Origin: a virus
DNA length: 64,000 bases
Virus record (IMG/VR): IMGVR_UViG_3300029243_000160
Coordinates: 81,209 to 145,208 of that record
Reading direction: 5' to 3' (one strand)
Part shown: positions 15,177-43,666 of the stretch, piece after piece
Layout: the number at the start of each line of letters is the position of its first letter
Numbering within the stretch: the stretch's first letter is position 1
Program-made: the position numbers and the translations under genes
The notes under the pieces: generated by a model
What the model saw: the letters and a program-made list of their open reading frames with translations, nothing else
The model's database searches: none
What the model was told of the DNA's origin: nothing

Positions 15177-15189
15177 AAAAGATTCCTAT

Positions 15190-15209
15190 AGGTATACCTC
15201 GCTATACCT
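15190..15209. repeat. Recombinase-core-like site A: AGGTATA-CCTCGC-TATACCT (perfect 7-bp inverted repeats, 6-bp spacer)
   Basis: Read directly from the sequence. It lies 370 bp from the int stop codon. Confidence 0.6.
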
Positions 15210-15243
15210 GTACTCATACTTACAATCACATAGTATAAAGAAA

Positions 15244-15277
15244 GCAGCCGAATTGCATTGTTCGACTGCTTCTTTTT
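15244..15277. terminator. Intrinsic terminator closing the plus-strand operon, possibly bidirectional
   Basis: GCAGCCGAA-N8-TTCGACTGC followed by TTCTTTTT. Confidence 0.7.
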
Positions 15278-15297
15278 GCCTCATATTTTGTTCTCAG

Positions 15298-15563
15298 TGT
15301 TAAACTTCAAAAATTGGTGTTAAGTTGGTGTTAAATTTTGGCTGTGCGATTGTTCCAGCCCTTGATTTTACTAACTTTCACTGTTCAAACTTTTCATTGT
15401 CGGGAATAATAAAACATATAAAATGAATCTTTTTCAAATGTCTTCATATCCCTACAAGCCTGTATTTTCACAAGTTTGAGCAAAATTTCGCATTATGGGG
15501 AAATCACATATCTCTACTTAACTGTGCTTAACTTTTGGTAAGCTGTTGTTAAACGATTGTTAA
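15298..15563. repeat. Cluster of TGTTAA/TTAAC short repeats; candidate arm-type integrase binding sites
   Basis: Tandem 11-bp repeats TTGGTGTTAAG/TTGGTGTTAAA (15314-15335). TGTTAA at 15298, 15547 and 15558 (the last two 11 bp apart). CTTAAC at 15517 and 15527. Confidence 0.5.
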
Positions 15564-15578
15564 GTCTCGCATTGTCGG

Positions 15579-16862
15579 CTATCGTTTTCTTGCACCTAAT
15601 GGATTGCAAACATACTTACGTTCTCCGGACTGTTTTTCTTTCAGTCCATCGAAGTATTCGCCGAGTGATTTCATTTCCATTTGTTTCAGTTCTTTGGTTG
15701 CGTCTGCATAGATGTTCATGGTTGTCTCTGCATCTGCGTGACCCAAGATTTCCTGCATCGCTTTGATGTTGACACCAGCTTCGCACATTCGTGTTGTGAA
15801 CGTATGTCTGAGATAGTGACAGCTGAATGGTGGAAGCGTAAGCCCCATCTTGTCAAGCTGTTTGAAGTTGCAATCTCGGATAATTCTTTTCAGTGCTTTG
15901 TTGAGTGTTCCCTGATGCTGAACATTCCCAAAACGATTGATAAAAATAAAATCTGTATAGCCGTCAATCTTTGACTTGCATACCAAATTATTTTCTTTTT
16001 GATACTGTCGTTCCATTCGGAACATTTCCTTGACAATCGGCAACATCGGAATGGTTCTTTCCCCTGCCTTTGTCTTCGGAAGGTTTACTGCGAAACCACA
16101 GGTTTCTTCTCCCGCACGTCTTCTGTCGAAGTACACCAGCGTGTGATTGACGCTGATTGCTTCGTTCTCCATGTCGAGGTCGCACCAGCGTAAACCTGTT
16201 ACTTCTCCGACACGCATTCCGGTGTAAAGCATTACCATAAAAATCGGTTGCCAATGCTGATACTCTGGAGTAAGTGCCAGATAATTTTCAAAAACTTCCT
16301 GCTCTTTCACGGTTAAAGCTCTTCTTTTCATAATATCACGTTCCCTTGCTTTTTTCAATTCTTTCAATGCTCCGTCTGACGGATTGAACCTCATGTATTC
16401 GTCTTCTACACCAAGTTCCAGAACCTGATGCAGGACTGTGTGTACACTGTCCACCGTACTGACTTTCAAGCTTCTTGTTTCTGCAAGGTAGTTGTAAAAA
16501 GCTCTGACATCTGACTTTCGCAGGTCGTCAATTTTTGTGTTTCCGAAGTCTGGTTCAACAAACTGTTCGTACATATAGCAATAGTTCGTGAAGGTGTTGA
16601 CTTTCAATCCACGCTTCACCTGTTTCCATCTGCAATATAAATCGTTGATAGTCATATTCTTGCTATCCGGATTTATGCCGTCCAGCATATCCCTCAGAAC
16701 ATCGGTTTCTTTCTCTCGCAAATCTTCAAGCGTCTTTCCATACACTGTTCTTCGCCTGCCTGTTTTATCACGCCAGCGAAATTCATATGTGCCGTTTGGA
16801 CGCTCGTATTCTCCTTCTTTGAGAACACGTCTTTTGCTGTCTTTTCTTCTCTCTACTGCCAT
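15579..16862 (-). CDS. int: Tyrosine recombinase/integrase, Tn916-Int-like, with an N-terminal arm-binding domain
   Basis: C-terminal HYLRHTFTTRM...ILGHADAETTMNIYAD carries the R/H-x-x-R/H/Y catalytic pattern. The N-terminus RRKDSKRRVLKEGEYERPNGTYEFRW resembles the Tn916 Int arm-binding domain. SD AAGGAG. Confidence 0.95.
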   Translation of the reverse strand: MAVERRKDSKRRVLKEGEYERPNGTYEFRWRDKTGRRRTVYGKTLEDLREKETDVLRDMLDGINPDSKNMTINDLYCRWKQVKRGLKVNTFTNYCYMYEQFVEPDFGNTKIDDLRKSDVRAFYNYLAETRSLKVSTVDSVHTVLHQVLELGVEDEYMRFNPSDGALKELKKARERDIMKRRALTVKEQEVFENYLALTPEYQHWQPIFMVMLYTGMRVGEVTGLRWCDLDMENEAISVNHTLVYFDRRRAGEETCGFAVNLPKTKAGERTIPMLPIVKEMFRMERQYQKENNLVCKSKIDGYTDFIFINRFGNVQHQGTLNKALKRIIRDCNFKQLDKMGLTLPPFSCHYLRHTFTTRMCEAGVNIKAMQEILGHADAETTMNIYADATKELKQMEMKSLGEYFDGLKEKQSGERKYVCNPLGARKR

Positions 16863-16984
16863 TTTTTCTTTCTCCTTATTGACAATGAGAGAACAAAATA
16901 TGAGCTGTTATCCGAGATGTCTCTGTTCTCTGATAACAAGTAAATCATACCATATTTTGCTCCATATGTCTATGCAACTCTTTG

Positions 16985-17182
16985 TTAAATCGAATACGCT
17001 TTCGCAAGGTATTCGTCCAGCTTCTTTCGCTTTATCAGACGTTTGCTTCCGTTCCAAAGTACAAAAGAGCAGTTATCATCATTTGACATTTCCCTCAGTT
17101 TGTTGATGCCGATACCGCAATATGCACTCGCCTCTTCCAGTGTCAGATTTGTTTTTTCCCATAGTGGAATTTGAATTGCCAT
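16985..17182 (-). CDS. xis: Excisionase, Tn916-Xis-like HTH
   Basis: IPLWEKTNLTLEEASAYCGIGINKLREM...NGSKRLIKRKKLDEYL aligns closely to my recollection of Tn916 Xis. It lies directly upstream of int. Confidence 0.9.
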   Translation of the reverse strand: MAIQIPLWEKTNLTLEEASAYCGIGINKLREMSNDDNCSFVLWNGSKRLIKRKKLDEYLAKAYSI

Positions 17183-17199
17183 AGCAAGTCTCCTTTCTA

Positions 17200-17262
17200 T
17201 TTACTCTGTATTATATCCGTTATTTTCATTTACAATATATCAATTTCCCGAAGCACTGTCAA
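17200..17262 (-). promoter_or_regulatory. xis-int promoter (TTGACA-17-TATATT) with the 24-bp box downstream of the -10, in front of the SD
   Basis: -35 at 17257-17262, -10 at 17234-17239, box TTTACTCTGTATTATATCCGTTAT at 17200-17223 (plus-strand text). Confidence 0.65.
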
Positions 17263-17336
17263 GAAGTAATTTACATAAGTCTTTATAACAGAAAAAATCC
17301 CCCGAAACGAACAGTTCCGAAGGCTTATGTGACTGC

Positions 17337-17371
17337 AAAAAAATAAAACCGCTGCCAGCGAGACAACGGTT
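17337..17371 (-). terminator. Intrinsic terminator upstream of the xis promoter
   Basis: Minus strand AACCGTTG-loop-CAGCGGTT followed by TTATTTTTTT. Confidence 0.65.
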
Positions 17372-17439
17372 CTACTTCTTACAAATATAACGATGAATAG
17401 CACACAAGAGGTGATTAACTTGTATACTTCCATGTTTGT

Positions 17440-17468
17440 ATTATACCACTTTTGCGAACACAAGTCAA
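17440..17468 (-). promoter_or_regulatory. Promoter TTGACT-17-TATAAT with a displaced fragment of the cassette spacer
   Basis: -10 at 17440-17445, -35 at 17463-17468. AGCACAGTAGTGTACA follows the -35 instead of lying in the spacer. Confidence 0.5.
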
Positions 17469-17540
17469 GCACAGTAGTGTACATTCTACCTTTTGCACAA
17501 AATGACGACTTTCTTTTTCATCTTTCTTACAAGTGTTGCA

Positions 17541-17741
17541 TTAAAGATAAATCTCAGAATCAATAATATAACCACATTTACATTTTACAACGGTTCTGTT
17601 ATCTTCCAAAATCACTTTCGGGGTCATATTGCACTTCGGACACGTTGTCGTTACATATCCGTTTTTCTTCATCTCCGCTACAGCTTGATTTGCAAGCATA
17701 ATGGGTTCTGTTAAATTCTGTTTCTTCATCTGAGTATCCAT
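17541..17741 (-). CDS. Small zinc-ribbon protein
   Basis: 66 aa with CPKC...CKC. Strong SD AAAGGAG 6 nt before the ATG. Overlaps the 3' end of the upstream ORF by 143 nt in another frame. Confidence 0.55.
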   Translation of the reverse strand: MDTQMKKQNLTEPIMLANQAVAEMKKNGYVTTTCPKCNMTPKVILEDNRTVVKCKCGYIIDSEIYL

Positions 17742-18672
17742 AAAGAACTCCTTTCATAAAACTATCTGTTTCTTTATCTGTTTCCAAAATATTTCCGCTT
17801 TCTCTTGCTCTCTCTTTTGCATCATTGATAAGGTCTGCACGTTCTTGTTGGGAAAGGTTTGGAGCGTTTTTTGCTGCGGTAATACTTGCCCTGCACTCAT
17901 CTGCCCACTGGGGCGTAGTTCTGTCTGCATCTTCCTTTCCCAAATCTGCTAAATATTCATTTCTAAACACTCGATGACCATAATATTCATGAGCAAGAAC
18001 AGCAGCTACACTCATTACATCTCTTGGGTGTGTTGAACCGTGGTCATTATCTGGGAAAACATTTCTTGTCACATATATTTTATCCTGAACACAATTGTAA
18101 CAGGTGCTTCTATCCATATGTGCTTCATCATTAAAGATGAATACAGATTCATCAGCTCCAATTCTTCTTATTTCTAATTTTACAAAATCAATTTCTTCAT
18201 TTGTCAATGGCTCTCTTGACAAATTACGCATTCCAGATGACATTAGTTTGTCATCTGAATGAAAATGTTCAAATAGCTTTTCTTCATTTTTCACACGCCA
18301 ACTTTGGAAGGGAGCTTTTTTTCGTGGAGCGTTTTTTTCTCCAGATTTTATTTTCCGCTTGACTGGCTCACTACCCTGAATTTTCTTCATCATATCATAT
18401 TGTTTCCCAATATTTGTGACATCAAATCTGCTTACACATTGAGCAAACCACGGAAATTCGTCTGTCAACTTTTCAACAAAGCGTTCTACCTGCGTTTTAC
18501 TCATTGGCTTATCAGAAGAATAACCAGACAATTGCCTGTGTGAAAATCCGTTTTCTTTCATGAAAGTTTTTATTTCTTTGTAAGCTTTCAAATATTCCAA
18601 CGGATTGTTTGTGGTGCAATAAACTTCTTTCAGCTTTTTTGTATCGAGGTCGAAGTTAATAGCCTTTCTCAT
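17599..18672 (-). CDS. VapD-like (Cas2-superfamily) domain fused to a zincin-like HExxxH domain
   Basis: The N-terminus KAINFDLDTKKLKEVY...AYKEIKTFMKENGF...WFAQCV aligns to VapD. The C-terminal half carries AVLAHEYYGHRVF. ATG18672 was chosen as the start (track start is 18684). Confidence 0.75.
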   Translation of the reverse strand: MRKAINFDLDTKKLKEVYCTTNNPLEYLKAYKEIKTFMKENGFSHRQLSGYSSDKPMSKTQVERFVEKLTDEFPWFAQCVSRFDVTNIGKQYDMMKKIQGSEPVKRKIKSGEKNAPRKKAPFQSWRVKNEEKLFEHFHSDDKLMSSGMRNLSREPLTNEEIDFVKLEIRRIGADESVFIFNDEAHMDRSTCYNCVQDKIYVTRNVFPDNDHGSTHPRDVMSVAAVLAHEYYGHRVFRNEYLADLGKEDADRTTPQWADECRASITAAKNAPNLSQQERADLINDAKERARESGNILETDKETDSFMKGVLYGYSDEETEFNRTHYACKSSCSGDEEKRICNDNVSEVQYDPESDFGR

Positions 18673-27107: not shown

Positions 27108-27839
27108 CTATATCAATTTATTTCCCAGTTTTTCATACGCTGGTTGGAGCTGTTCTGCAATCGCTTTGTAGTCCCTGCACTGCCGGATTCCCTGTTCTAC
27201 TTCTATCTCGTCAAAATGCTCTGCAATCATATCACAAAGAAAGCAAAAGTAATTGTCCAGATGTGGTGGTGTCCACATATCGGAACGGCACAAGAAAATG
27301 CCGTCATACTTCTCTTCTTTTTCTTCCAGTGTAGCAAGATTCAGTGAAAGCACATTTCTGAGAGCTTTGTCTTCTTTTACTTCTTTGTCCAAGCCGAACA
27401 TTTCTATGGAGATTGGATTTGCTATCCATCTCAGCTTCATCTTGTACTCGTCCAGAAGGTATGAAATCCAGTTGCCACAATCCAGATGCTTATTGTTATT
27501 CGTAAAGTCGTGGTGCATATCTATGTTTACCAGAGAAAGCTTTTCATCTTCTGACACATAGTCATGTACAAAGTCATACACATGGACATGGCTGTTTGCA
27601 ATCATCACCGGAGTGTCTGGAGATTGCTTCTTTAAGATACGCTTCAAGCATTCCAATTCTTCTTCCAGAATGCCCACAGAACGCACCAGATTGGCTTGTG
27701 TGCCACCTAGGTAGTAAGATGCCCATATCAGTGTGGACAGTTCCGTGGAGTGGTCTACGCCGTCCGGAAAGCTTCTCACAGCTTCTTTTGTGATTTTCAG
27801 AAAATAATCAAAATCAATAGAAAGGATTCGCTTAATCAC
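27108..27839 (-). CDS. Conserved hypothetical protein, possibly UPF0489/arginase-deacetylase-like
   Basis: A GTG27839 start overlaps the upstream stop (GTGA) with SD GAGGA 8 nt upstream; the track ORF extends to 27944. Motifs SIDFDYF, NIDMHHD and CGNW. The family call is tentative. Confidence 0.65.
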   Translation of the reverse strand: MIKRILSIDFDYFLKITKEAVRSFPDGVDHSTELSTLIWASYYLGGTQANLVRSVGILEEELECLKRILKKQSPDTPVMIANSHVHVYDFVHDYVSEDEKLSLVNIDMHHDFTNNNKHLDCGNWISYLLDEYKMKLRWIANPISIEMFGLDKEVKEDKALRNVLSLNLATLEEKEEKYDGIFLCRSDMWTPPHLDNYFCFLCDMIAEHFDEIEVEQGIRQCRDYKAIAEQLQPAYEKLGNKLI

Positions 27840-28467: not shown

Positions 28468-28568
28468 AAAGCAAGTCCTTTCTCAGGTGTCGGCGGCATT
28501 GATACCACTGATTTGTATATTATTACATTGCATAATTCAGCTCTTTTTTGAGCTATCTTACATGAATT

Positions 28569-28634
28569 ATTATAGCACAATAGTGTACAAAAGTCAAGCA
28601 ATAACTGTTGTTTACTCTGTAAATTATCCGTTAT
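28569..28634 (-). promoter_or_regulatory. Type-1 cassette promoter plus 24-bp box
   Basis: -10 at 28569-28574, -35 at 28592-28597, 13-nt gap, box at 28611-28634. Confidence 0.8.
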
Positions 28635-28666
28635 GTTTTTCAAACACATTTGTGCAAGCATACAAA

Positions 28667-28700
28667 AAAGCCACTCTCTTGCGAAAGTGACTTCAATGTT
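28667..28700 (-). terminator. Intrinsic terminator after lipoprotein gene 28717
   Basis: AGTCACT-loop-AGTGGCT followed by TTTTTT on the minus strand. Confidence 0.6.
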
Positions 28701-28716
28701 GAAGAATATGCTATTT

Positions 28717-30063: not shown

Positions 30064-30278
30064 TGCTTGATTCTCCTTTACTTTATATTACAATAGACGA
30101 AGTGGGAAATACATCTCACTTCGCCTACGGCATTCATTCGTGCAGTGTTCTTTCTTACATCACACTGTCCTTTCTGGTGTGAGGACTTCCTCAATTGCGA
30201 ATAGATATATGATTTATGGCAAGCATTCTCTTGTTCGTCCACAAGGCAGGATTTCCTGCAACAAGAGTTACTTTGTCA

Positions 30279-30854
30279 TCATGCCAGCAGGCTTTTTCTC
30301 AGGCTCAGTTCATTCTGAATAATGCAAAATAATTCATATGCTGCATAGCAGTCTGCCAACGCCGTATGTGCATCATTATGCGTGATGCCGAAGTGTTCCG
30401 ATAAAGCTGTAAGTTTATAACTTTTCAGCCGGAACAAGCTCTTTGCAAGTGGTAGAGTGTCGATATAAGGATTTGTAAATTCTGCCCTCGAAGAGCGATA
30501 GACTTGCTTCTTCTTTGCAGAAACAAATCTGCAATCGAACCCCAGATTGTGTCCAAGCACCACTGTGTCATCTCCGATTGCTTCCAGAAAGCTTTTCAAA
30601 GCAACATTGATAGAAGGTGCGTTCTGCACTGCTTCATTCGTGATGCCTGTCAACTGAATGATTTCCTGCGGAATTGCTTTTCTCGGCTTTACAAGCGTGT
30701 TAAATTCCTGCGTTACCACGCCGTTCTGCACCAGCAGACCGCCAATGTTGATGATTTCATTATAATCTGGAGATAAGCCAGTTGTTTCAAGGTCAAACAC
30801 CACATAGTCTTTGATGTTTGCAGCTTCCTGCTCATTGAGCATTTTTCCAATCAC
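30279..30854 (-). CDS. DnaQ-like 3'-5' exonuclease (DEDDh, Pol III epsilon family)
   Basis: VVFDLETTGL, GHNLGFDCRFV and HTALADCYAAYELF motifs. GTG start with SD GAGGA. Confidence 0.9.
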   Translation of the reverse strand: MIGKMLNEQEAANIKDYVVFDLETTGLSPDYNEIINIGGLLVQNGVVTQEFNTLVKPRKAIPQEIIQLTGITNEAVQNAPSINVALKSFLEAIGDDTVVLGHNLGFDCRFVSAKKKQVYRSSRAEFTNPYIDTLPLAKSLFRLKSYKLTALSEHFGITHNDAHTALADCYAAYELFCIIQNELSLRKSLLA

Positions 30855-30859
30855 GATAA

Positions 30860-31606
30860 TCAGTCCTCGTTTCTCAGTAGGTAAATGTCGTCTGCGACAG
30901 GTTCTTCGCTTCCTTCTGGAGCAGTATCATATTCGATTAACAACGTATTTGTGCCGTTATTGTACGCAATCATGTCGTCCAATTCTGTTCCAGCACCAAA
31001 CTGAGATTCTACAGCACTCTTTTCTGTTCCAGTTGTGATAACTCCGCAGAAATAGACGTTGAAGTCACTTCTTGTAAAGAACTGACTTGCATGGACACCT
31101 TTCAGCTTGTAGATGCCGAAGTCTTCCGTTTTCAAGCGGTCACTGTCTACGATTTTTCCATCATAATTTTCCACTTCCAGAGATACTTCTGTGCAGTCAT
31201 CTGAACCCTGTTGGTTCAAACTGTACATCGCACTGTGAAAGGAAAAGCTGCTCTCAACCGATGTTGCACCAAAGCTGTCACAGGACAGCCCTGTATCGCT
31301 TAACACCTTTTCCAGACTGGGAGCTTCATTCAAATTGATAGTTACTCCGTTGATAGTCACACTGCTCATGTCTGCATCTGTGTTGACATCAACCGTAGGT
31401 ACAACTGGATAGATGGTTTCGTCAGCTGGTGAGTTTTCCTCGACCTCAGCATCTGAACTCACTTCGCTGTCGCTTTTGCTTGCAAGCGTTTCCTGTGAGG
31501 CGTTGATGTGAATTTCCGGCTCACTGGAAGAATCATTTTGTTTGCCACAGCCTGTTACCGAAATCATCATGCACAGTGCCAGAATCAATCCGATTTTCTT
31601 TCTCAT
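30860..31606 (-). CDS. Lipoprotein (paralog family A)
   Basis: Lipobox SVTGC. The C-terminal domain is homologous to that of 28717-30063. ATGA overlap with the upstream gene. Confidence 0.8.
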   Translation of the reverse strand: MRKKIGLILALCMMISVTGCGKQNDSSSEPEIHINASQETLASKSDSEVSSDAEVEENSPADETIYPVVPTVDVNTDADMSSVTINGVTINLNEAPSLEKVLSDTGLSCDSFGATSVESSFSFHSAMYSLNQQGSDDCTEVSLEVENYDGKIVDSDRLKTEDFGIYKLKGVHASQFFTRSDFNVYFCGVITTGTEKSAVESQFGAGTELDDMIAYNNGTNTLLIEYDTAPEGSEEPVADDIYLLRNED

Positions 31607-32655
31607 TCTTCAAAGCTCCCTTCGGATTTATATTCGCTGTACGCATCATACATTGCGTTGATACGTCCGCTTACATTCCATGCGTGGTTTGTGCCATTCA
31701 CAGAACAGTCGCTGTATACCGTTTTCTGTTCGCTGTCTGGTTCGTTGTTGAAGAACCAAAGCAGGAATTTCCCGATATTTTCAATGCTTTCTTTGTTTTC
31801 CTGTATTTCAAGCTGGTGACAGAAGTAGATAACATTCACAAGATTTGTTTTCTTGACAGCCCTTTTCAAAACCGCTTTTTTGCCGTTTTCTGCAACATAC
31901 TCCAGTACGGAATCTGTAAAATCCAGAAGAGCCTGCATTGCTTCTGTCGTATTTGCATCGAAAGCCATGTTTTCATAACTTTCTTTGATATTCTTTGCAG
32001 ACAGTTCAAACTGCCCGTCATAGATTTGCAGAGCTGTTTTGATGACAACATCTTCATTCTGATAACCTGCTCGTGCCTTATCTGTCATGTACTTCATAAA
32101 CAGGTCGGACTTTGCAAGCTGAATTACCGCTGGCAGGTTCTTTGCCTTGATTCTGGATTTTTCAATACCAGACAGGACTTTGCCGTTATTCAGTCGGAAC
32201 ATCATCTCTGCCAGTTCATCATCTGTTATATCGGTGAAGAAATACACTGTCATTGTGTAGCTTTCAAATGCTTCTCTCGCTTCTTCCGGCAGTTCCTCGT
32301 AAGTCATGCCGTTCAGGTCAACTTCATCACCACACCAGTCGTACCAAGGCAGGGACAGACCAGTCAAAGCAAATTCGTTATGATAGAACGCTCGAATTGC
32401 TTCGCATCGTTGTTTGCCATCGAAGCAGTCGAACACCTTGCTGCCTTTCTTGCAACCTGCCGGAGCATCAATATCTGTTTTAATAGTGTACATCGGTGGC
32501 ACTGGGTAATTATGAATCAACGATTCAATGAGCAGGCTCTGCTGAACCACATTCCAGACGTTTCCTCTCTGAATAGCATTGTCGAATACCATGCTACCCT
32601 TTGTGACTGCCTTTGCAATCTGTTTCGCACTCCATGCAATGTTTGCCTTAATCAT
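31603..32655 (-). CDS. DUF262 (GmrSD N-terminal/ParB-like) domain protein
   Basis: FDNAIQRGNVW...LIESL...PVPPMY...FDGKQRCEAI matches the DUF262 DGQQR-type signature. No C-terminal HNH/DUF1524 domain is evident. Confidence 0.85.
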   Translation of the reverse strand: MIKANIAWSAKQIAKAVTKGSMVFDNAIQRGNVWNVVQQSLLIESLIHNYPVPPMYTIKTDIDAPAGCKKGSKVFDCFDGKQRCEAIRAFYHNEFALTGLSLPWYDWCGDEVDLNGMTYEELPEEAREAFESYTMTVYFFTDITDDELAEMMFRLNNGKVLSGIEKSRIKAKNLPAVIQLAKSDLFMKYMTDKARAGYQNEDVVIKTALQIYDGQFELSAKNIKESYENMAFDANTTEAMQALLDFTDSVLEYVAENGKKAVLKRAVKKTNLVNVIYFCHQLEIQENKESIENIGKFLLWFFNNEPDSEQKTVYSDCSVNGTNHAWNVSGRINAMYDAYSEYKSEGSFEE

Positions 32656-32674
32656 GGGCTATCTCTCCTTGTCT

Positions 32675-32728
32675 ATTATAACACATTGCAATATTACATT
32701 GCAATTTACTCTATCTATTATCCGTTAT
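32675..32728 (-). promoter_or_regulatory. Promoter TTGCAA-18-TGtTATAAT with the 24-bp box abutting the -35
   Basis: -10 at 32675-32680, -35 at 32699-32704, box at 32705-32728. The spacer contains the direct repeat ATTGCAATGT twice. Confidence 0.6.
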
Positions 32729-32747
32729 TTCTTTGCAAAAAATATTC

Positions 32748-33062
32748 TTAAAATGATTTCAGCAAAGAAAAACCAATGCGTTCCACATAGTACGCTTCAT
32801 TGTCAACCACAACAACATCGCTGACAGAAAGTGAATGCCCACAAAAATCTTTTGGCAGGTTGACATTAAATCGAATGAAGATTTCTTCTAAAATCGCATT
32901 CATGCCACAGGTCAATGCGTCTTTGGGAATCTGAAACGAATAAACGCTGTGGTATACGCTTTTCTCCAGACGGAGCATCTTCTCTTTCCATTCGTTTGAA
33001 CCTTGGAACATCATTTTATGCTCTGCTGGCAGCTGATAAATTGTTACCTGTACTGTTTCCAT
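32748..33062 (-). CDS. YodL-like small protein
   Basis: ATG33062 (METVQVTIYQL) has SD AAGGAGAG. IYQL...FNVNLPKDFCGHSLSVSDVVVVD...YYVERIGF resembles the YodL-like family of Firmicutes mobile elements (a recollection). Confidence 0.65.
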   Translation of the reverse strand: METVQVTIYQLPAEHKMMFQGSNEWKEKMLRLEKSVYHSVYSFQIPKDALTCGMNAILEEIFIRFNVNLPKDFCGHSLSVSDVVVVDNEAYYVERIGFSLLKSF

Positions 33063-33098
33063 TTGATTTACTCTCCTTATCTTTGAATCACTATACTT

Positions 33099-33164
33099 AG
33101 TATAGCACAATAGTGTACAAAAGTCAAGCACAAATCAAATTTTACTCTGTAAATTATTCGTTAT
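33099..33164 (-). promoter_or_regulatory. Type-1 cassette promoter (TTGACT-17-TATACT) plus 24-bp box
   Basis: -10 at 33099-33104, -35 at 33122-33127, 13-nt gap, box at 33141-33164. Confidence 0.75.
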
Positions 33165-33230
33165 CAAAACAAATGATTTTTGTGCAAACATACAAAAAGA
33201 GCAGGAACTTGCCCTGCTCTCTTGCTAATA

Positions 33231-35201
33231 TTACATTGCTTCCAGATAATCCGATTCAAAATAGGCATCTTTCACTCTGCCTTTTGTGATTGCTTTTGCG
33301 ACTGCTCGCATGAACTTTCTTCTGTCCGGAATCACAACGCTGTACTGTTCATTTGTTCTTATGTTCCAGACGATTCCCTTATTCAGTCCGAACGCAATCA
33401 TATAGCAGGCACATTGCAAGAAATGCTCATGGGACAATTCTTCTACGAATTTCAGTTCGTAGACTGTGTTGTTTTTGATAACGTCTGGTCTGCCAACAAT
33501 GTCGTACACATTCTCGTTACCATCAATAAACTGCATGGAAAAGTCTTCCTGCACTTCTTCTTTGCCTGTAAACTCTGTTCGCAGACGATTATGAATCAGG
33601 GAAAGTTGTTCCTCTGTGAGAAACGGCGGCTTTACCTGATAGTAATAACGGTTCTGGTATGTTTCGTATGCTGTCAGATACAGTACCTTTTCTTCCAGTG
33701 TTGCATCTTTTTTCAAGTTCAGAGGCGGTCTGTCGTCAGCAATATCCATTGCATACCGAATCTGTGCATCAATATCATAGTTTTCAAAGAAGCTTGCTTC
33801 CTGATAGATGCCGATGCAAGGAGAAAGGTCAATCATGAAGTCTTCCGAATCCACATCAATCATGGACTTATCTGTTCTTGCTTTCTTTCTTTTGCGAATC
33901 AGCTGATAGCACTCTTCCACATCTTCTTTGTATTTGAAATCGAACATTTCACTTACCTGAAAAGGACGCTTGTACTCTCCGTTTGTCGGAACAGGTGTCG
34001 CAACGATTTCGTCCGGAAGCACATCGCTGAACGGTTCTTTTACAATGATGATTTTTTCTTTGCCTCGGCTCATAGCAACACAGAAGATGTTCCGCAGAAT
34101 CTCATACTTTACGTCCGGATAGCCCATTCTGACAGACCAGTAGTCCAGTGTATAGTCAAAGACAACACAAATCTTTCGTTCCAGCCCCTTGCTGCTGTCA
34201 AAGGTTGTGAAGATGGCTGTAGACTTATCCGGAATCGTTCTGCCTGCATTGTCATCAGAAATGCTGGCGTAAACGGTTTTCTTGTTGAACTTTTCCGGAT
34301 ATTTGTCCTCTAAGTCGTTCAGGACACTTGCCATTTTTCCTGTTCTTGCCCCCAAGCACAGAATGTCAGACGGCTTCTGCTTTGCCAAATACTCAATCAC
34401 ATCGCACAGCTCCATTGTTTCCAGCTTGCAGTCTTTGTTCACACCATTGATTTGCTTTCCCCAGATGTCCCCAAGACGGCTTGCAAGGTCACTACAAAGA
34501 CGGAAGCACTTTGTAAAAGTAACTGTATCATACCTTCCAAGAAACTGATTGATAAAGATAGGCACATTCAGTGTTGTTTTATCGTAAATCTTCTGCTTCA
34601 TATCACCAACAGCAACAATCTGCACCGCTGGATTGCTCTTCTTGACGCATTCCAGCATCTCTGCGATTTCCTGTTCGATGTCCTGATATTCGTCAATCAC
34701 CAGCAAGTCATACTTCGGGACTTCGATTTTTGTCTTGTTCTTCAAGAAAATCTGAATCAAATCAGAAATGCCAGCAGATAAGTGTGCGTTTTTCAAGCAC
34801 ATATATGCAAATCCGTGATAGTTGGTAACAGTTACGTTCTTTCCTCGAATTTTATCTCTTGCGTCAATCTTCAAAAGTGTGTTGTAAGTCAAATACAGCA
34901 CCTTTTTGTCCGGTATCTCATTGCACAGCACCTGAATTGTTGTAGTTTTACCACTACCGATGCAGGCATCTACCAGAACATTCTTTCCTGACTTTGCAAG
35001 AGCAATCATAGATTGCTGCTCTTCGGAAAGGTCAGACAGTTGCATAACTGGCGTTGGTGTCCACTTGTCGAAACGGCTGTCGGCAGTTCCTTTATAGTAC
35101 CACTGCTTTTGTCTAGCGTCCCATTTCGCTCCAAGAGCCTTTACCTCATCTTTTTCTACATAAGGCACTTGCAGATAATGAATTGTATTTTCCCATGCCA
35201 T
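33231..35201 (-). CDS. UvrD-like SF1 helicase with a C-terminal PD-(D/E)xK nuclease and an N-terminal DUF5710-like module
   Basis: ATG35201 has SD AAAGGTGG. N-terminus VPYVEKDEVKALGAKWDARQKQWYY. Walker A GSGKTT. LLVIDEYQD (UvrD motif II). C-terminus GRPDV...YELKFV...QCACY. Confidence 0.85.
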   Translation of the reverse strand: MAWENTIHYLQVPYVEKDEVKALGAKWDARQKQWYYKGTADSRFDKWTPTPVMQLSDLSEEQQSMIALAKSGKNVLVDACIGSGKTTTIQVLCNEIPDKKVLYLTYNTLLKIDARDKIRGKNVTVTNYHGFAYMCLKNAHLSAGISDLIQIFLKNKTKIEVPKYDLLVIDEYQDIEQEIAEMLECVKKSNPAVQIVAVGDMKQKIYDKTTLNVPIFINQFLGRYDTVTFTKCFRLCSDLASRLGDIWGKQINGVNKDCKLETMELCDVIEYLAKQKPSDILCLGARTGKMASVLNDLEDKYPEKFNKKTVYASISDDNAGRTIPDKSTAIFTTFDSSKGLERKICVVFDYTLDYWSVRMGYPDVKYEILRNIFCVAMSRGKEKIIIVKEPFSDVLPDEIVATPVPTNGEYKRPFQVSEMFDFKYKEDVEECYQLIRKRKKARTDKSMIDVDSEDFMIDLSPCIGIYQEASFFENYDIDAQIRYAMDIADDRPPLNLKKDATLEEKVLYLTAYETYQNRYYYQVKPPFLTEEQLSLIHNRLRTEFTGKEEVQEDFSMQFIDGNENVYDIVGRPDVIKNNTVYELKFVEELSHEHFLQCACYMIAFGLNKGIVWNIRTNEQYSVVIPDRRKFMRAVAKAITKGRVKDAYFESDYLEAM

Positions 35202-35240
35202 ATGCTGTGCCACCTTTCCTTTCAAGAATATTATAATATC

Positions 35241-35306
35241 ATTATAGCATAATAGTGTACAAATGTCAAGGTATATTAAGGTGTTACTCTGTAGATTATT
35301 CGTTAT
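35241..35306 (-). promoter_or_regulatory. Type-1 cassette promoter plus 24-bp box
   Basis: -10 at 35241-35246, -35 at 35264-35269, 13-nt gap, box at 35283-35306. Confidence 0.8.
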
Positions 35307-35335
35307 GTTTTTCGTAATTATTTGTGCAAGCATAC

Positions 35336-35361
35336 AAAAAGAGCAGGTTATCTGCCTGCTC
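35336..35361 (-). terminator. Intrinsic terminator after the sigma4/alpha-CTD gene
   Basis: GAGCAGG-N7-CCTGCTC followed by TTTTT on the minus strand. Confidence 0.7.
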
Positions 35362-35362
35362 C

Positions 35363-35890
35363 TTACAATTCCTGTTTCAAAGAGATGCCGAGCTTGTGAA
35401 ACCGCATTTTGATTTCCTGCACACACGCTATGCCGATGCCTGTACAGTTCAAAAGTTCTTTTTCACTGTATTGTTTCAGAATCCCGATGGTATCAATATC
35501 GTTGGATTTTAATGCTGTCGATGTCCGGAAAGAAAATCCAGCTTTCAAAACCGATGTATTTAGCAGCGGATTGGTTTCTGTCGGATTTCTTCTGCATCGG
35601 ACTGAAAAGTATTCATCTTCCATAACACCGCCAAAATCCCGAACTACTTGTCGGATTCGCTCTTTTGTTACGCCGTACTCGTCAGCCAATCGTTCCAACG
35701 TATAGAAGTTGATATATCTTTTTTGAATGATTTCAGCATTTCTCTCATCGGTTCTGTAGAAGGCAGATTCTATCACTTCAACAAGCACATTATGTTTTTC
35801 CTCGTCCAAGTCAATTCCGATTCGTTCCAGCATATCCTTCTGGAACGCTTTTCTACACAGCAGAGTGTTAATCTGCTCTTTACCTGTCAT
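35363..35890 (-). CDS. Chimeric transcription factor: sigma-70 region-4 HTH fused to an RNAP alpha-CTD-like HhH domain
   Basis: YTLERLADEYGVTKERIRQVVRDF matches sigma region 4.2. FSFRTSTALKSNDIDTIGILKQYSEKELLNCTGIGIACVQEIKMRFHKLGISL aligns to E. coli alpha-CTD. SD GAGGTAA. Confidence 0.8.
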   Translation of the reverse strand: MTGKEQINTLLCRKAFQKDMLERIGIDLDEEKHNVLVEVIESAFYRTDERNAEIIQKRYINFYTLERLADEYGVTKERIRQVVRDFGGVMEDEYFSVRCRRNPTETNPLLNTSVLKAGFSFRTSTALKSNDIDTIGILKQYSEKELLNCTGIGIACVQEIKMRFHKLGISLKQEL

Positions 35891-35945
35891 GTCAATTACC
35901 TCATTTCTCTTTGCTTTTGCGTATAAGGTTATATTTAATTATAGC

Positions 35946-35974
35946 ACAGTAGTGTACATTTGTCAAGGTGGTGT
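35946..35974 (-). promoter_or_regulatory. Type-1 cassette promoter, box-less copy, driving the sigma4/alpha-CTD gene
   Basis: -10 at 35946-35951, -35 at 35969-35974. No 24-bp box lies upstream. Confidence 0.8.
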
Positions 35975-36034
35975 GTGCATCTGCTTGTGTAAAAGATTTG
36001 AGAACAGGATATGTCGTCTTTTGTACAGGTACAC

Positions 36035-36064
36035 AAAAAAGAGCAGCGAAAAAATCCACTGCTC
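36035..36064 (-). terminator. Intrinsic terminator after lipoprotein gene 36092
   Basis: GAGCAG-loop-CTGCTC followed by TTTTTT on the minus strand. Confidence 0.6.
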
Positions 36065-36091
36065 TTCTGCGAGATTGCGATTGATGTAAAC

Positions 36092-37039
36092 TTAATTCCG
36101 AAGCAAGAGAATTGTCTGAGCGTAATCCAGTGTGTCCGGTTCTCCGTCCAGAACAATAATCGACTTCACAGTTTCGTAGGTAACGACCATCGTTGCTTCC
36201 GAAGTCTTGTAAATGACAACTGGGTGTTCATCATCTTCTGCCTGTCCAGCTGTGCCTGCTCCCAGTTTCTTTTCAATTTCTCTTCGTTCTGTTCCAACAG
36301 TGATGCCGCCGCAAAACGTGATGTATTCCGGCTCTTCTTCGTTATATTCGCTGAATGCAGAATCATTTGTGTAGCCGATTCCCTTTATCAGCATATCATC
36401 GGTAATATCCGGATTGGAAACCTTCGGAACGATTACGTTGCCTGCTCTGTCCAGCAGTTCCATGACGTAAATTGGAGATGTCGGTGAACCATAGAAGGAT
36501 AGTCCGTAGAAGTAAAAGTCCTGATTTCTCTCAACCTTCTTTGAGAAGCGATAAGATGTTCCTGTATCGGAGAGAATCATTTCTGGTGTAACCTCTCTGA
36601 TGTTATATTCATTGCCATCAATTGTGAAGTCGCCCAGACCTGCTTTCACATCATTTGTTTCGTCCACATCAGGCACAAGAGGCAGGGAAGCCTGCTCAGA
36701 ACTGTATTGTGTGTTTTCACTGGACGAGTTGCCAGCTCCTGTGCCAGAGCTATTAGAACCAGCAGTGGACTGCTGATTGCTTTCTGTTGTAGATTCCATT
36801 GTTGTGACAGTCTCTGTTGTAGATTCCAAAGACTGTGTTGTTGCATCTGGAGTTTCCGTATCATACGGATTGACTTCCATTTCCTTTTCATAAGCATTGA
36901 TGCCGAGCTGTTCGTCCGTAGCACCAATACTGGAATCATCATTGTTTGCTCCACACCCAGATAGTGATGCGACTGCAAGAAGCATTGCAAAGACGATTGC
37001 AAATCTTCTATGTTTGGGTTTATTGCTGTGTCTGTTCAT
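36092..37039 (-). CDS. Lipoprotein (paralog family A)
   Basis: Lipobox SLSGC. S/T-rich linker. The C-terminal domain is related to those of 28717-30063 and 30860-31606. Confidence 0.8.
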   Translation of the reverse strand: MNRHSNKPKHRRFAIVFAMLLAVASLSGCGANNDDSSIGATDEQLGINAYEKEMEVNPYDTETPDATTQSLESTTETVTTMESTTESNQQSTAGSNSSGTGAGNSSSENTQYSSEQASLPLVPDVDETNDVKAGLGDFTIDGNEYNIREVTPEMILSDTGTSYRFSKKVERNQDFYFYGLSFYGSPTSPIYVMELLDRAGNVIVPKVSNPDITDDMLIKGIGYTNDSAFSEYNEEEPEYITFCGGITVGTERREIEKKLGAGTAGQAEDDEHPVVIYKTSEATMVVTYETVKSIIVLDGEPDTLDYAQTILLLRN

Positions 37040-37070
37040 GAGATAGCTCTCCTTTCTCTTATGCTTTCAT

Positions 37071-37895
37071 TTAGTTTTCGGTATTTTCAGCATCGCCGAT
37101 GGTGATTTCTTCATCAAAATCATCAGCATTGTCATTGCTGCTGTTACTGAATGAAATGTCGCCATTATCAAAGGCGTTGTACATTGCCTGCATAGTGGTC
37201 ATCATAATGTCTGCTTTCCATGTGTCGCCGACCTTTACTGCAAGCATAGTTGGTGCATAATCTGTCAGACCTGTTTCATCGGAATCTGTTTCCTTAAATT
37301 CCAGCGGAACAACGTATGCGGCATCAACTATATAATCAACCGGATTGCCGTCATCGTCCATTTCCTGAATGAAGTCGTTCAGTTCCTGCAATTCTTCTTC
37401 ATTCATCAGAACAGCTTCGCCGTAAGTGAAACTATCAGGATTGCCATACATATAGCCCTCTCCGCTTTCTGCTTCGCTGTCCTGTTCTGCTGCCATTGCC
37501 AGAATCTCATCTTTGGTCAGCCACTTTCCTTCATCGAGATAAGCATACAGGTCAATGTTGGTGTAATCGCAAACTGCGTTCCAATCCATCTGTCCATATG
37601 CTTCGTAGCCTTTACTTACAAGCTCAATAGCCTGCTCCGGTGTGATGTCTCCTGTGTACACAGTCACCTCAGCCGAAGTGGATTCTTCCGCAGAAGATTC
37701 CTGCGAACTGTTTTCTGCCTCGCTGTCAGAATCAGTCTGAGATTCCAATTCATCGTCCTGAATCGCTCTTACAGATACCTCAGAACTGGAAGTCGATGAA
37801 TCCTTGCCACCGGAACAGCCAGTCAGTATTGTTGCACCCATGCTGGCAGCAGTGATGCAGGTCAGAAAAATTGCGATTGCTCTTGTTTTCTTCAT
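37071..37895 (-). CDS. Lipoprotein (distinct family)
   Basis: ATG37895 has SD AAAGGA. Lipobox LTGC. Acidic S/E-rich linker. Confidence 0.75.
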   Translation of the reverse strand: MKKTRAIAIFLTCITAASMGATILTGCSGGKDSSTSSSEVSVRAIQDDELESQTDSDSEAENSSQESSAEESTSAEVTVYTGDITPEQAIELVSKGYEAYGQMDWNAVCDYTNIDLYAYLDEGKWLTKDEILAMAAEQDSEAESGEGYMYGNPDSFTYGEAVLMNEEELQELNDFIQEMDDDGNPVDYIVDAAYVVPLEFKETDSDETGLTDYAPTMLAVKVGDTWKADIMMTTMQAMYNAFDNGDISFSNSSNDNADDFDEEITIGDAENTEN

Positions 37896-37915
37896 GTACA
37901 AAAGTCCTTTCTGTG

Positions 37916-39031
37916 TTAATAGGTAATCGTGTTACCGTAATCTATTTTCTTGACGGAGCTGATGTTTGCTCCGAGGTCAAGCCCATTCCAGTTGTAGTAG
38001 CCCCAGCTTCCGCTGTAAGCCACACAAGAAGGCAATTCTTTGTCACTGTTATAGATAAATTCTACAACAGATTTTCCGTTGCCAGTTCCACCAAACCAAT
38101 GGAATCTGCCGTCCAGAATACCGTCACCGTCAGCGTCTGATGCCCAGCCTTTGCTGTCACAAATGGACACAGTAAACTGTGTTCCGTTTTCCAGTTCAAT
38201 CAGAAATCTGTCGCCAACAACGCCGTACCAAAGTCCCATTGCTACACAATAATCGCCATATTCATTTCGGCGAATTGTGGTGTCTGTGATAGGGTCTTTT
38301 ACTGAACCTGCAATTGCTCCAGAAGACGGCATTGCAGTCAGTCCGGAAGCACGTTCTCCAGTGAAACAATTTGTCCAGCCCTCTTCGGTCTGATACGTCT
38401 GAATCACATTGACTTGTTCCGTTTTTCCAAGAACCGTTGCAGGTGTAACACAAACATCGTTCTCTGTTTCACCGTCATTCAAAAGAGGCGTAACGGAAAT
38501 TTCGTACTCAGAATTTTCCCGAAGTCCGGTCAAATACCAAGTGTCATTTGCCTTTTCAAGGAACGTGATGTTTTCTGTGTATGGAGCGTAGGTAGAAACA
38601 TCAATCTTGTAGTTTCTTCCATCTTCTCCGTCCCACGTCAGTTTCAAACAGGAAACTGAAATTGTGCTTACGGTCAAGTTGGGAATATCCGGATTTTGTG
38701 TCGGTGTAAAGTTAGCTTCAATTGTGCTGGCTTCTGTTTCCGCTGTCGTAGTTTCTGTTGTTGTCTGTGTTGTGGCAGCAGTCGTTTCATGAGTGGTCTG
38801 CTTTGTTGTTATGGTTGCTTTTGCCGTTGCTCTTGTCGTCTTTTTGGTTGTGGAAGTACAAGTTGCTGTTGGTACTGTTGCAGTCTGAGTAGCAGTGATT
38901 TCTATTGCATCATCTCTGTCTGTCTGAGCAGCTACATTCGTGCCAAGTGCAGAATGGATTCCGACACCAAGCATGGCACAGCAACCGATTGCTCCGATTG
39001 CAACTCCTGTATAAATCATCTTACGCTTCAT
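37916..39031 (-). CDS. Secreted protein with a T-rich linker, an FN3-like domain and an uncharacterised C-terminal domain
   Basis: Signal/TM segment. LKLTWDGEDGRNYKIDVS...EYEISVTPL looks like fibronectin type III. The C-terminal domain might be DPBB/3D-like, but that is weak. Confidence 0.75.
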   Translation of the reverse strand: MKRKMIYTGVAIGAIGCCAMLGVGIHSALGTNVAAQTDRDDAIEITATQTATVPTATCTSTTKKTTRATAKATITTKQTTHETTAATTQTTTETTTAETEASTIEANFTPTQNPDIPNLTVSTISVSCLKLTWDGEDGRNYKIDVSTYAPYTENITFLEKANDTWYLTGLRENSEYEISVTPLLNDGETENDVCVTPATVLGKTEQVNVIQTYQTEEGWTNCFTGERASGLTAMPSSGAIAGSVKDPITDTTIRRNEYGDYCVAMGLWYGVVGDRFLIELENGTQFTVSICDSKGWASDADGDGILDGRFHWFGGTGNGKSVVEFIYNSDKELPSCVAYSGSWGYYNWNGLDLGANISSVKKIDYGNTITY

Positions 39032-39062
39032 CGGTATTTACTCCTTTCTCATTGCTTGTCTT

Positions 39063-39260
39063 TCATATGAGTGTTTCCCCTCTGTGCTGTTCAATCCAGT
39101 GTTCCAGTTCAACAGAATCTACACGATAAATGCGACCAAACCGAATTACCGGAAAGCCGTCAGAGTTCATCAGCTCAATTGCTTTTTTTCTCCCGATATT
39201 GAAGATTTTCTGAACATCTTCCACACTATAAAATCGTCTTTTTACATCTGTTTCTTGCAA
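39063..39260 (-). CDS. Excisionase-family/MerR-like HTH DNA-binding protein
   Basis: YSVEDVQKIFNIGRKKAIELMNSDGFPVIRFGRIYRV. TTG start 7 nt after GAGGTG. Confidence 0.75.
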   Translation of the reverse strand: MQETDVKRRFYSVEDVQKIFNIGRKKAIELMNSDGFPVIRFGRIYRVDSVELEHWIEQHRGETLI

Positions 39261-39276
39261 AGCTTTTTCACCTCTT

Positions 39277-40176
39277 TCAGCATACAGTCAGCAGGATTTT
39301 TGCAATTGCCAGAACCGCCAGATGTGCAGGATAAAAATATCTGCAAGTGACAATACAGGCTTTACTTTTCAGAATCTTTGTCAGCCATTTCGGAAGAATA
39401 AAGCACTTATGCTTTTCACTGCACTGTGCAAAGAAAAACAGAATCAGCAACAAAAATGTTGCCAGATAAACTGTAATATTACTTCCCATTGACAAGATGA
39501 AAATTCCCATCGCAACAATCTGCCACAGCCACTTGCAATGCTTTCTGTTTCTTGCAAAATTGAACAGACCAACGAGCAGGATTCCTCTCCAGCTGTAATC
39601 AACTTTGAAATAATATGCCAGTGCAAAAATCACACCAAAAACAATTCCTGTTCCGCAATTCACAGCAAGCTTTCTTACTTTTCCAGTTCCAAAAAACTTG
39701 CTCCAGCATTTCTGATTACTCTGCAAATTATCCGTTATTGTCAGCATTAAAAAGCAAAGGAAGAATGTGAAAATCGTATTCTGCCCTTTGAAAATGTCCA
39801 TGCTGATTTCGGTCGGGTTTTGCAAAGTTAATGCGAGGTCAAAAGGAATTTCAGATACCAACGCAAGCACTATCAAGCGTATCAGATGTCGCATTGGATT
39901 TTGTGTGTGATAGAAGCTTTCTACAAACAGAAAAGCAAAGATAGGAAATGCAAATCTTCCGACAATGAGACACCACAGTTCTGCATTGTCGCCGATTACT
40001 CCGGTACTATACAATACCTTTCCCAAGTGGTCTGTTACCATTGTCAGAACCGCAATGATTCTGAGCAGGTAATACCATTCTGTTGAGATGCGTTCTGGAC
40101 GAGTGGCAGTAATCGCTTTCTGCTCTGTCAAACGATGCTGCTTTTTCTCCATACGGATTGAACTTCTTTTTCCCAT
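39277..40176 (-). CDS. traX: TraX-family membrane protein
   Basis: LLRIIAVLTMVTDHLGK and a multi-TM profile. ATG40176 lies 9 nt after GGAGTG. Confidence 0.8.
   Translation of the reverse strand: MGKRSSIRMEKKQHRLTEQKAITATRPERISTEWYYLLRIIAVLTMVTDHLGKVLYSTGVIGDNAELWCLIVGRFAFPIFAFLFVESFYHTQNPMRHLIRLIVLALVSEIPFDLALTLQNPTEISMDIFKGQNTIFTFFLCFLMLTITDNLQSNQKCWSKFFGTGKVRKLAVNCGTGIVFGVIFALAYYFKVDYSWRGILLVGLFNFARNRKHCKWLWQIVAMGIFILSMGSNITVYLATFLLLILFFFAQCSEKHKCFILPKWLTKILKSKACIVTCRYFYPAHLAVLAIAKILLTVC
39715..39738 (-). promoter_or_regulatory. 24-bp box copy (22/24 match) inside the traX coding sequence
   Basis: ATTACTCTGCAAATTATCCGTTAT versus the consensus TTTACTCTGTAAATTATCCGTTAT. Confidence 0.4.
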
Positions 40177-40210
40177 ATGATGATACACTCCTTTTTATAG
40201 TACATTATTT

Positions 40211-40266
40211 ATTATAGCCGTTTCATCAATCTATGTCAACCGTTACTGAATGTTTATATCCGTTAT
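40211..40266 (-). promoter_or_regulatory. traX-operon promoter TTGACA-17-TATAAT with a partial box
   Basis: -10 at 40211-40216, -35 at 40234-40239, TATATCCGTTAT at 40255-40266. Confidence 0.65.
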
Positions 40267-40364
40267 TATCAAGAAAGAACTATAAAAGCACATAAATGCA
40301 CAATAAAGCTCAGTAAGCAGAAGAAACCGTGTAACGCAGTGATTCAGGCAAAGGAATAGACTAT

Positions 40365-40384
40365 AAGTATACCTTGCTATACCT
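40365..40384. repeat. Recombinase-core-like site B: AAGTATA-CCTTGC-TATACCT
   Basis: Same orientation as site A. One mismatch in the left arm and one in the 6-bp spacer. Confidence 0.55.
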
Positions 40385-40484
40385 ATAGCCTATCTCATAC
40401 TACAGCTTATCACCTTTACCGTGTTGAGTATCTGGAGATTTCACAACGCTTTTCCACGATACAGTGTTGTTCTATGCGACTTTA

Positions 40485-40868: not shown

Positions 40869-40880
40869 AATTGCTCTCCT

Positions 40881-41414: not shown

Positions 41415-41432
41415 GTTTTCTCCTTTCAAGAA

Positions 41433-41663: not shown

Positions 41664-41707
41664 AATTATCACCTCTCATTTTTCGACAAAATCAAACTTT
41701 TTGTATG

Positions 41708-41971: not shown

Positions 41972-42001
41972 AACAAGCACTTCCAATCAATAATCAATGT
42001 T

Positions 42002-42358: not shown

Positions 42359-42376
42359 AATCATCGCTCCTTTGTT

Positions 42377-43061: not shown

Positions 43062-43085
43062 GTGCTTTCTCCCTTACTGCTTTCT

Positions 43086-43280: not shown

Positions 43281-43304
43281 TTTTCTTTCTCCTTTAATGT
43301 TACT

Positions 43305-43634: not shown

Positions 43635-43666
43635 ACGATTCACGCCTTTCTCTCGGTGTCTTAACG

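Follow-up and report, generated by a model that had tools for sequence, protein, structure and literature searches.

What acts on two closely similar inverted repeats that lie 25.2 kb apart in the same orientation, one of them close to an integrase gene, in DNA that is probably part of an integrative, probably conjugative, element of ~145 kb from gut Firmicutes? The window, by which we mean the whole stretch of 64,000 nucleotides analysed here (IMG/VR virus record IMGVR_UViG_3300029243_000160, positions 81,209 to 145,208), carries site A at 15190-15209 (AGGTATA-CCTCGC-TATACCT) and site B at 40365-40384 (AAGTATA-CCTTGC-TATACCT), both read on the + strand. An earlier note on this DNA had taken the pair for cores of a Tn916-type integrase. 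Both sites were found as it described them in position, direct orientation and sequence, and they are not random: A and B were the sole matches to the 20-mer at ≤3 mismatches on the two strands of the window, the number expected by chance was 0, and 0 of 100 dinucleotide-preserving shuffles gave a match, as compared to two matches in the window. TATACCT occurs five times in the window, four of these within A and B, and no cluster of half-sites was found elsewhere. The resemblance reported for the flanks holds as well, as CTATA forms the left flank of both sites and CTCATACT stands on the right, 4 nt past A and 10 nt past B, accounting for two of its three copies in the window. Site B is better described as an 11-6-11 repeat (CTATAAGTATA-CCTTGC-TATACCTATAG), where 10 of the 11 arm positions are complementary.

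Our analysis places the core used by the Int and Xis proteins of the element elsewhere, at 15393-15406, and makes it likely that A and B are secondary copies of the core of an origin of transfer (oriT), serving the element's own relaxase of the MOBV type. This reading builds on what we observed of the attachment (att) core, of the agreement between the motif and the site next to the mobilization gene (mob), of the association with mob throughout the family, of covariation between the arms and of secondary copies that vary together with the cognate one.

In many contigs the element is integrated in a chromosome. To map the att core we aligned such copies, as well as circular ones of this ~145 kb element, with the window. 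On the int side, the window and the integrated copies are the same up to ...CCCGAC-N-ATGAA, where a host tRNA_bind gene takes over and the alignment breaks at 15393. At the other end, identity extends from a gene for a 248-aa protein across site A, then a terminator and three GTGTTAA repeats, as far as ...CATTGTCGGGAA, and beyond this, with a break at 15406, the integrated copies diverge into a host tRNA-synthetase (tRNA-synt_2) gene. The 14 bp given by both junction breaks (15393-15406, TTCATTGTCGGGAA) are the attP core of the whole element. Of the host genes, they overlap tRNA_bind at its start codon and the adjacent tRNA-synt_2 gene at its 3' end, and position 15398 is variable (A/T/G) in the int-side junctions, as a coupling sequence would be. 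Site A is located 184 bp from this core and wholly on one arm, and is therefore not the crossover site; in the integrated state it is 184 bp inside one end of the element. Furthermore, the junctions of the integrated copies do not fall in the spacer of A and the arm-type repeats do not flank it. TGTTAA is found at 15298, 15318, 15329, 15547 and 15558, thus bracketing 15393-15406 and lying all to one side of A: three GTGTTAA repeats, putative arm-type Int sites, are on the arm far from int (15297-15335, + strand) and two TGTTAA repeats on the int-proximal arm (15547-15563, + strand). The statement in the earlier note that such repeats occur only near A was consequently inaccurate.

To the right of these repeats lie the genes for a 427-aa Tn916-type tyrosine integrase (15579-16862, - strand; PF00589, 5e-28, and PF02920, 6.5e-17) and for a 65-aa Xis (16985-17182, - strand; PF09035, Tn916-Xis, in loci L001-L010, from which the coordinates were transferred to the window). 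The attachment site is like an attP of Tn916 or lambda type in its core at 15393-15406, in the TGTTAA repeats on both arms and in an Int with a Tn916-type N-terminal domain, whereas A and B, unlike the components of such an attP, have no part in the crossover. With both junctions of the integrated copies at 15393-15406, the proposal that A and B are Tn916-type Int cores does not hold, and neither does the alternative that A is the attP of the replicon, as the attB match lies elsewhere within 15.0-15.6 kb. What stands of the earlier interpretation is that A and B are real, specific and directly oriented DNA-processing sites.

Some further features were seen around the att core. On integration, element sequence takes the place of ~11 codons at the end of the host tRNA-synthetase gene and of what precedes the start codon of tRNA_bind (15393-15430; L014:12945-12980). 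Nine bases of the core are repeated directly past the int stop codon (CATTGTCGG, window 15570-15578). One integrated copy (L007:11285-11500) was found at another target (CCCGACGATGAAGTCTATTG...) within a mobile element with DUF6462 genes, which looks like a secondary attachment site. No tRNA gene was found in the window.

The motif of A and B is also present next to a relaxase gene. A 131 kb IMG/VR contig, 98.6% identical to window positions 32311-44328, has GTATACCTYGCTATACCT three times. The first of these copies is site B; the second, referred to here as the cognate copy, is located 188 bp upstream of a 448-aa Mob_Pre gene and on the same strand (L164, L175-177); and the third is located 37 bp past the stop codon of a gene for a second tyrosine recombinase (368 aa), outside the window. 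Between 18 and 23 nt of the motif are shared with the mob-proximal copy, and with a Y-degenerate pattern A matches the mob-proximal copy of a near-identical relative at 17 of 18 bases. Judged by its sequence, the 448-aa protein is a Mob_Pre (MOBV) relaxase: it matches PF01076 (1.4e-23) and the MobM structure 4LVI (3.7e-14), has HNxR and HxDExxPHMH motifs and matches 1403 PLSDB plasmids, and among the matches listed most are annotated as MobV family relaxase. A RepL-like gene lies upstream, and the gene after mob encodes an 857-aa TraG/VirD4-like P-loop protein (ATPase). As A and B are not located beside mob, they were regarded as secondary copies. An unrelated contig of 6.9 kb with genes for a resolvase and a large serine recombinase (L152) has the exact 18-mer as well, at 35 bp from a Mob_Pre gene. 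A scan for the 18-mer in one genome per species gave 11 matches, nine of them in unrelated taxa, of which L152 alone was informative and one locus (L153) was between PadR and RecO genes, and a loose 14-base pattern gave chance matches only when run against viral contigs.

The association with mob extends throughout the relaxase family. We scanned metagenomes with an alignment of relatives of the relaxase and obtained 61 loci, 55 of which were usable (36-100% identity), and searched the 450 nt upstream of mob for hairpins of the form arm-N6-arm with the spacer nCTYGn or its complement. Such a hairpin was present in 30 of the 55 loci, 46-367 bp upstream of mob. The spacer was conserved and the arms were specific to each lineage (AAGTATA/TATACTT, GGTATTGGTATA/TATACCAATACC, TGTCCTATA/TATAGGACA and TTTGCCATA/TATGGCAAA). 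The arms remained paired: in an alignment of 23 sequences 87.4% of the cells were paired, vs. 71.9% after shuffling (a level reached by 0 of 500 shuffles) and 28-48% when the arms were slid against each other. Arm changes on both sides were found 34 times where 11 were expected, and 7 of 10 pairs change on both sides. G17, T19 and A20 of the hairpin alignment never vary, and at least 90% of the sequences agree at C14 and T15. The motif family has what characterizes a MOBV oriT, an inverted repeat around a conserved nick sequence with a G before the predicted cut. Site A fits the same alignment and its CTCG spacer recurs in the mob-proximal hairpins of L205, L228 and L230; the spacers of both A and B (CCTCGC and CCTTGC) are within the range seen at mob-proximal sites.

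This was further supported by comparison with relaxase sites that have been studied directly. The oriT of pMV158, GCACACACTTTATGAATATAAAGTATAGTGTG/TTATACTTTAC, is nicked at G/T on the coding strand of mobM, whose product is the prototype of MOBV1, and its IR2 hairpin reads TAAAGTATA-GTGTG/T-TATACTTTA (PMC5863519). On the + strand, site B (AAGTATACCTTG/CTATACCT) shares 15 of 20 positions with AAGTATAGTGTG/TTATACTT, the nick region of pMV158. Common to both are the arms AAGTATA/TATACTT, a loop of 6 nt that has G as its fifth base and precedes TATAC, the location upstream of mob on its coding strand and a homologous relaxase domain (the 4LVI match given above). The loops differ (CCTYGC here, GTGTGT there), no equivalent of the upstream hairpin IR1, the main binding site of MobM, was identified here, and where pMV158 has a single oriT on a 5.5 kb plasmid, about four are present on an integrative element of ~145 kb. 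The best PLSDB match of our relaxase is the one of pBMB0228 (35% identity, typed MOBV). The 24-bp core of its oriT1, read from a published primer, is TTTGGTATA-ACGTGC-TAGACCAAA, and we found it 72 nt upstream of mobV. Two direct copies of the 24-bp core suffice for Mob-mediated excision, detected in 2-3% of colonies, and other relaxases that recombine pairs of oriTs are listed in the same work (PMC4902927). The pBMB0228 Mob02281/oriT1 system and our sites have the geometry GGTATA-N6-TAnACC in common, and direct cores permit excision there as the layout of A and B would here; the spacer sequence differs, and excision is known for the pBMB0228 cores and only possible at A and B. Moreover, each of the two mob/oriT modules of pBMB0228 comes with a relaxase of its own, whereas this element has several copies of one site.

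Do the secondary copies evolve with the cognate one? A relative of 127 kb, whose Mob is 52% identical, has its own variant of the motif, GGTATATCTTGTTATACC, three times, so the copies co-vary with the cognate site of their lineage. The first copy is located 182 bp upstream of mob; the remaining two share one orientation, opposite to that of the mob-proximal copy. The element of the window has the matching pattern, with A and B on the + strand and the cognate copy on the - strand once the contig is turned to the orientation of the window. One secondary copy of the 127 kb relative precedes a traX homologue (37% identity) by ~400 bp, a location like that of site B, and is embedded in frame in a homologue of the second recombinase. 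The other marks the start of the primase/DHH gene block, at the end of which site A is found. Two diverged lineages have a copy of the motif upstream of a traX homologue, which together with B makes three. In the third lineage, four IMG/VR contigs of 92-177 kb (L242, L245, L248 and L249) carry AGTATATCTTGTTATACTT twice, the copies being inverted and 575 bp from each other; those of L242, L248 and L249 are ~700 bp upstream of a traX homologue; no inversion at this pair was seen, as the pairing of the flanks was identical in all four contigs. Site B itself is kept in loci L141, L160, L161 and L163. On a ~145 kb circle the approximate layout, in contig coordinates, would be A at 15 kb (+), B at 40 kb (+), the recombinase-linked copy at ~89 kb (-) and the cognate copy at ~126 kb (-). 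The sites look functional and are of a known kind, MOBV oriT; it is the layout that is unusual, as a large integrative element here has several co-evolving oriT copies of either orientation.

Copies were also seen in other settings. In L173:3933-4589 (IMGVR_UViG_3300045988_183505) a full oriT core is in frame inside a tyrosine recombinase gene, as an insert of nine amino acids (SSIGITRYT) relative to the homologue in L093, which suggests that insertion or conversion can bring the motif to new places. Single copies with variant cores are present in phage-like IMG/VR contigs of 35-39 kb (L168, L170 and L171), one near a capsid gene, one between the genes for a lysin and a DnaB-like helicase and one 368 bp past an integrase gene (L168); these may be oriT mimics. 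The loop of site A on the - strand (TAGCGA) may resemble the CS-6 motif of single-strand origins.

On this basis we propose the following course of events. The oriT core would be a short hairpin with GTATA/TATAC arms and a loop of 6 nt, nCTYGn, that holds the nick site of the relaxase (site A, 15185-15214, + strand, CCTATAGGTATA-CCTCGC-TATACCTGTACT, predicted nick CCTCG/C on the + strand; site B, 40360-40389, + strand, ACTATAAGTATA-CCTTGC-TATACCTATAGC). The relaxase would bind the extruded hairpin and cut after the G, so that nicking at A and B is predicted at CCTYG/C on the + strand, and each copy could begin or terminate a round of single-strand transfer. A round that starts at one of A and B and ends at the other would yield a circle of 25.2 kb with attP, int, xis, putative anti-defence genes and traX, and recombination of the two oriTs by the relaxase would give the same product. 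Excision between A and B, as had been suggested earlier, therefore stays possible, by the relaxase instead of Int; the predicted junctions are AGATTCCTATAGGTATACCTYGCTATACCTATAGCCTATCTC in the deleted replicon and AATAGACTATAAGTATACCTYGCTATACCTGTACTCATACTT in the circle. In transfer from A, attP, int, xis and the run of putative anti-defence genes would go first. In leading regions of plasmids the transferred strand is the template of the genes. All genes between 15.5 and 64 kb are on the - strand, and the transferred strand would accordingly be their template here too.

Direct repeats of a nick site that bound a separately transferable or deletable segment are known from the borders of the Agrobacterium T-DNA and from plasmids with two direct oriTs. 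The segment between A and B is flanked in the same manner, while VirD2, the T-DNA relaxase, is of MOBQ/P type and segmental transfer is only conjectured for this element. A bolder extension, which we find doubtful, is that the four cores (two per orientation, ~25-49 kb apart) divide the element into segments that could be transferred or excised separately, with A to B as a T-DNA-like mini-element of 25 kb that has its own attP, int and xis and an anti-defence leading region, and that the cores spread, also into coding sequence and phage-like genomes. Plasmids of Staphylococcus aureus carry oriT mimics, and multiple oriTs, for relaxases supplied in trans by pWBG749-type plasmids (PMC4652767). 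Short oriT hairpins away from the relaxase gene, in several copies, are common to these plasmids and our element, and the 18-mer is also found singly in phage-like contigs; the copies described here differ from the mimics in that they share the element with its own relaxase and co-vary with the cognate site.

One contig has the appearance of a recombination product. In L185 (OHXX01001302.1, 4.7 kb) the recombinase side of one copy (99.7%) is joined to the mob side of the cognate copy (99.3%), and the switch falls within the 23-bp shared motif, making it an exact hybrid of two copies other than A and B. This is the junction expected of a 37 kb circle formed between the recombinase-linked and the cognate copy, which are direct to each other, and 23 bp is a short repeat for an assembly chimera. 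In a separate contig of 2.6x coverage (L256, ERZ19210908 NODE_11095), 51 unrelated bases replace the C-terminus of the recombinase and most of the motif, and the sequence resumes at the right edge of the motif. The "Type 2" variants of the element (L154-L159, L162) are without B: their homology with the window ends at 40431-40442, 47 bp to the right of B, and a run of small genes replaces traX and everything below, some of them also being without 43.7-55.8 kb. We considered this break as a crossover in the site or a deletion between A and B and rejected both, as it is the boundary of a mosaic module 47 bp from B.

Several results weigh against the interpretation of A and B as secondary oriT cores. 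The mob gene and the cognate copy are outside the window, and their presence in this exact element is deduced from near-identical relatives. The strand that would be cut at A and B was assigned by homology. Six of the mob-adjacent hairpins are inverted relative to mob (5 of 19 distinct hairpins of the family and that of L152) and the hairpin stabilities are modest, -2.3 to -3.6 kcal/mol. The position of A is not conserved in the diverged 127 kb relative, and one motif copy is beside the gene of the second recombinase in one lineage, another lineage having it within the homologue of that gene. Regarding recombination, L185 is one short contig and a single observation, 12 of 12 contigs read for the neighbouring recombinase had the parental order, and no hybrid of A and B was found in ~78 long contigs around the int, DHH, 248-aa and 127-aa genes, a reading that took the longest contigs first and would miss rare products.

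An explanation that would account for part of this is that the motif is the site of the second, 368-aa tyrosine recombinase, which would resolve, invert or delete between copies. The copy just past its stop codon, the in-frame copy inside its homologue in the diverged lineage and the L185 hybrid, which retains the recombinase gene beside the motif, all speak for this, as do the Xer-like 11-6-11 form of B and the integrase gene close to the copy in L168. The association that holds in the whole family is with mob, however, and when the fetched stretches of the mob loci were searched by tblastn with this recombinase and Int (E≤1e-4), only that of L185 had a homologue. A conserved spacer between variable arms is also the reverse of a typical recombinase site, and the motif aligns with tested MOBV nick regions, and we therefore regard this explanation as unlikely.

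It is likewise improbable that A and B are bound by the relaxase or a regulator without being nicked, as operators or structural sites, or that they are relics of an oriT duplication. Binding of MobM to oriT represses its own promoter (PMC5863519), and in three lineages the traX promoter is preceded by a copy of the B type. However, B is 126 bp upstream of the -35 hexamer of that promoter and A lies between convergent genes with no promoter called beside it, and because of these distances an operator role was set aside. Relics, in turn, would not track the cognate copy in the lineage with a 52%-identical Mob.

The use of A and B as Tn916-type Int cores, whether Int and Xis recombine A with B or A serves as attP and B as a pseudo-site, is suggested by the 7-6-7 geometry and by the 370 bp between A and the int stop codon, but is very improbable given the crossover position and its bracketing repeats described above, a motif that stands upstream of mob in many elements with no integrase gene seen beside it, and the lack of A/B hybrids among the ~78 contigs. 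Finally, RNA hairpins (a small RNA, an attenuator or a processing site) are very improbable even if the stem of B on the - strand is kept by a G-U pair and A is preceded by a weak promoter-like TTGACG-17-TATAAG and followed by a stem-loop terminator (15241-15272, T-run on the + strand, between A and the att arm repeats), as no Rfam 15 family reached its gathering score anywhere in the window, the orientation relative to local transcription differs among copies, one copy is within coding sequence and the folding energies are unexceptional. The operator and RNA-hairpin alternatives, which the earlier note had left standing, hence found no support.

A strong promoter cassette (TTGACA-17-TATAAT) is present at nine places on the - strand (17439, 24146, 28566, 33096, 35238, 35935, 45741, 51801 and 61840). 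Since it spans both sides of B, the 25 kb between A and B are not a foreign insert, in agreement with the earlier judgement that this is no foreign nested element. The cassette is ~50-90 nt long, consists of a consensus promoter (CTTGACATTTGTACACTACTGTGCTATAAT, - strand) and a conserved leader and stands ahead of many operons, and looks like a single regulatory scheme common to the whole element. The traX homologue downstream of B (39277-40188, - strand; PF05857, 5.7e-26) has a perfect sigma-70 promoter at 40211-40239, and a NikA-like ribbon-helix-helix protein (21187-21726, - strand; PF21983, 8e-12) is a possible relaxosome accessory factor, a role deduced from this similarity. Besides TraX and the NikA-like protein, the window encodes proteins with LPD domains, a primase-like protein, a RecJ-like DHH protein, NADAR, DUF3990 and macro domain proteins, an RNase H, an exonuclease, a GmrSD-like protein, YodL, a helicase-nuclease, a sigma-like factor and two large dockerin proteins. 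The latter (46618-49779 and 51970-54099, - strand) have the dockerin at the C-terminus, one of them together with BspA-type leucine-rich repeats, which points to a Ruminococcus-like host that bears a cellulosome or amylosome. Neighbouring stretches that are 71-73% identical (57739-58076 vs. 58537-58871, and 26635-26783 vs. 27368-27516) suggest tandem duplications of small genes. Window positions 1-25000 had no near match in the phage collection, and neither a motif copy nor a mob gene was found in the 10 kb that adjoin the window on its left (L167).

The positions of nicking and integration tell how an element moves, and several contigs of 143-146 kb that share the window's arrangement from int to the 248-aa gene suggest that this one is a circular element of ~145 kb. 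With the integrase protein indexed in 402 blocks of the metagenome collection, it is common in human gut metagenomes, and its cargo comprises dockerin-bearing surface proteins and many putative anti-defence genes. The case also illustrates that a 7-6-7 palindrome beside an integrase gene need not be the site of that integrase. If the copies are active, the consequences would be partial transfer of the element, deletions driven by its relaxase and possibly transfer of neighbouring chromosomal DNA.

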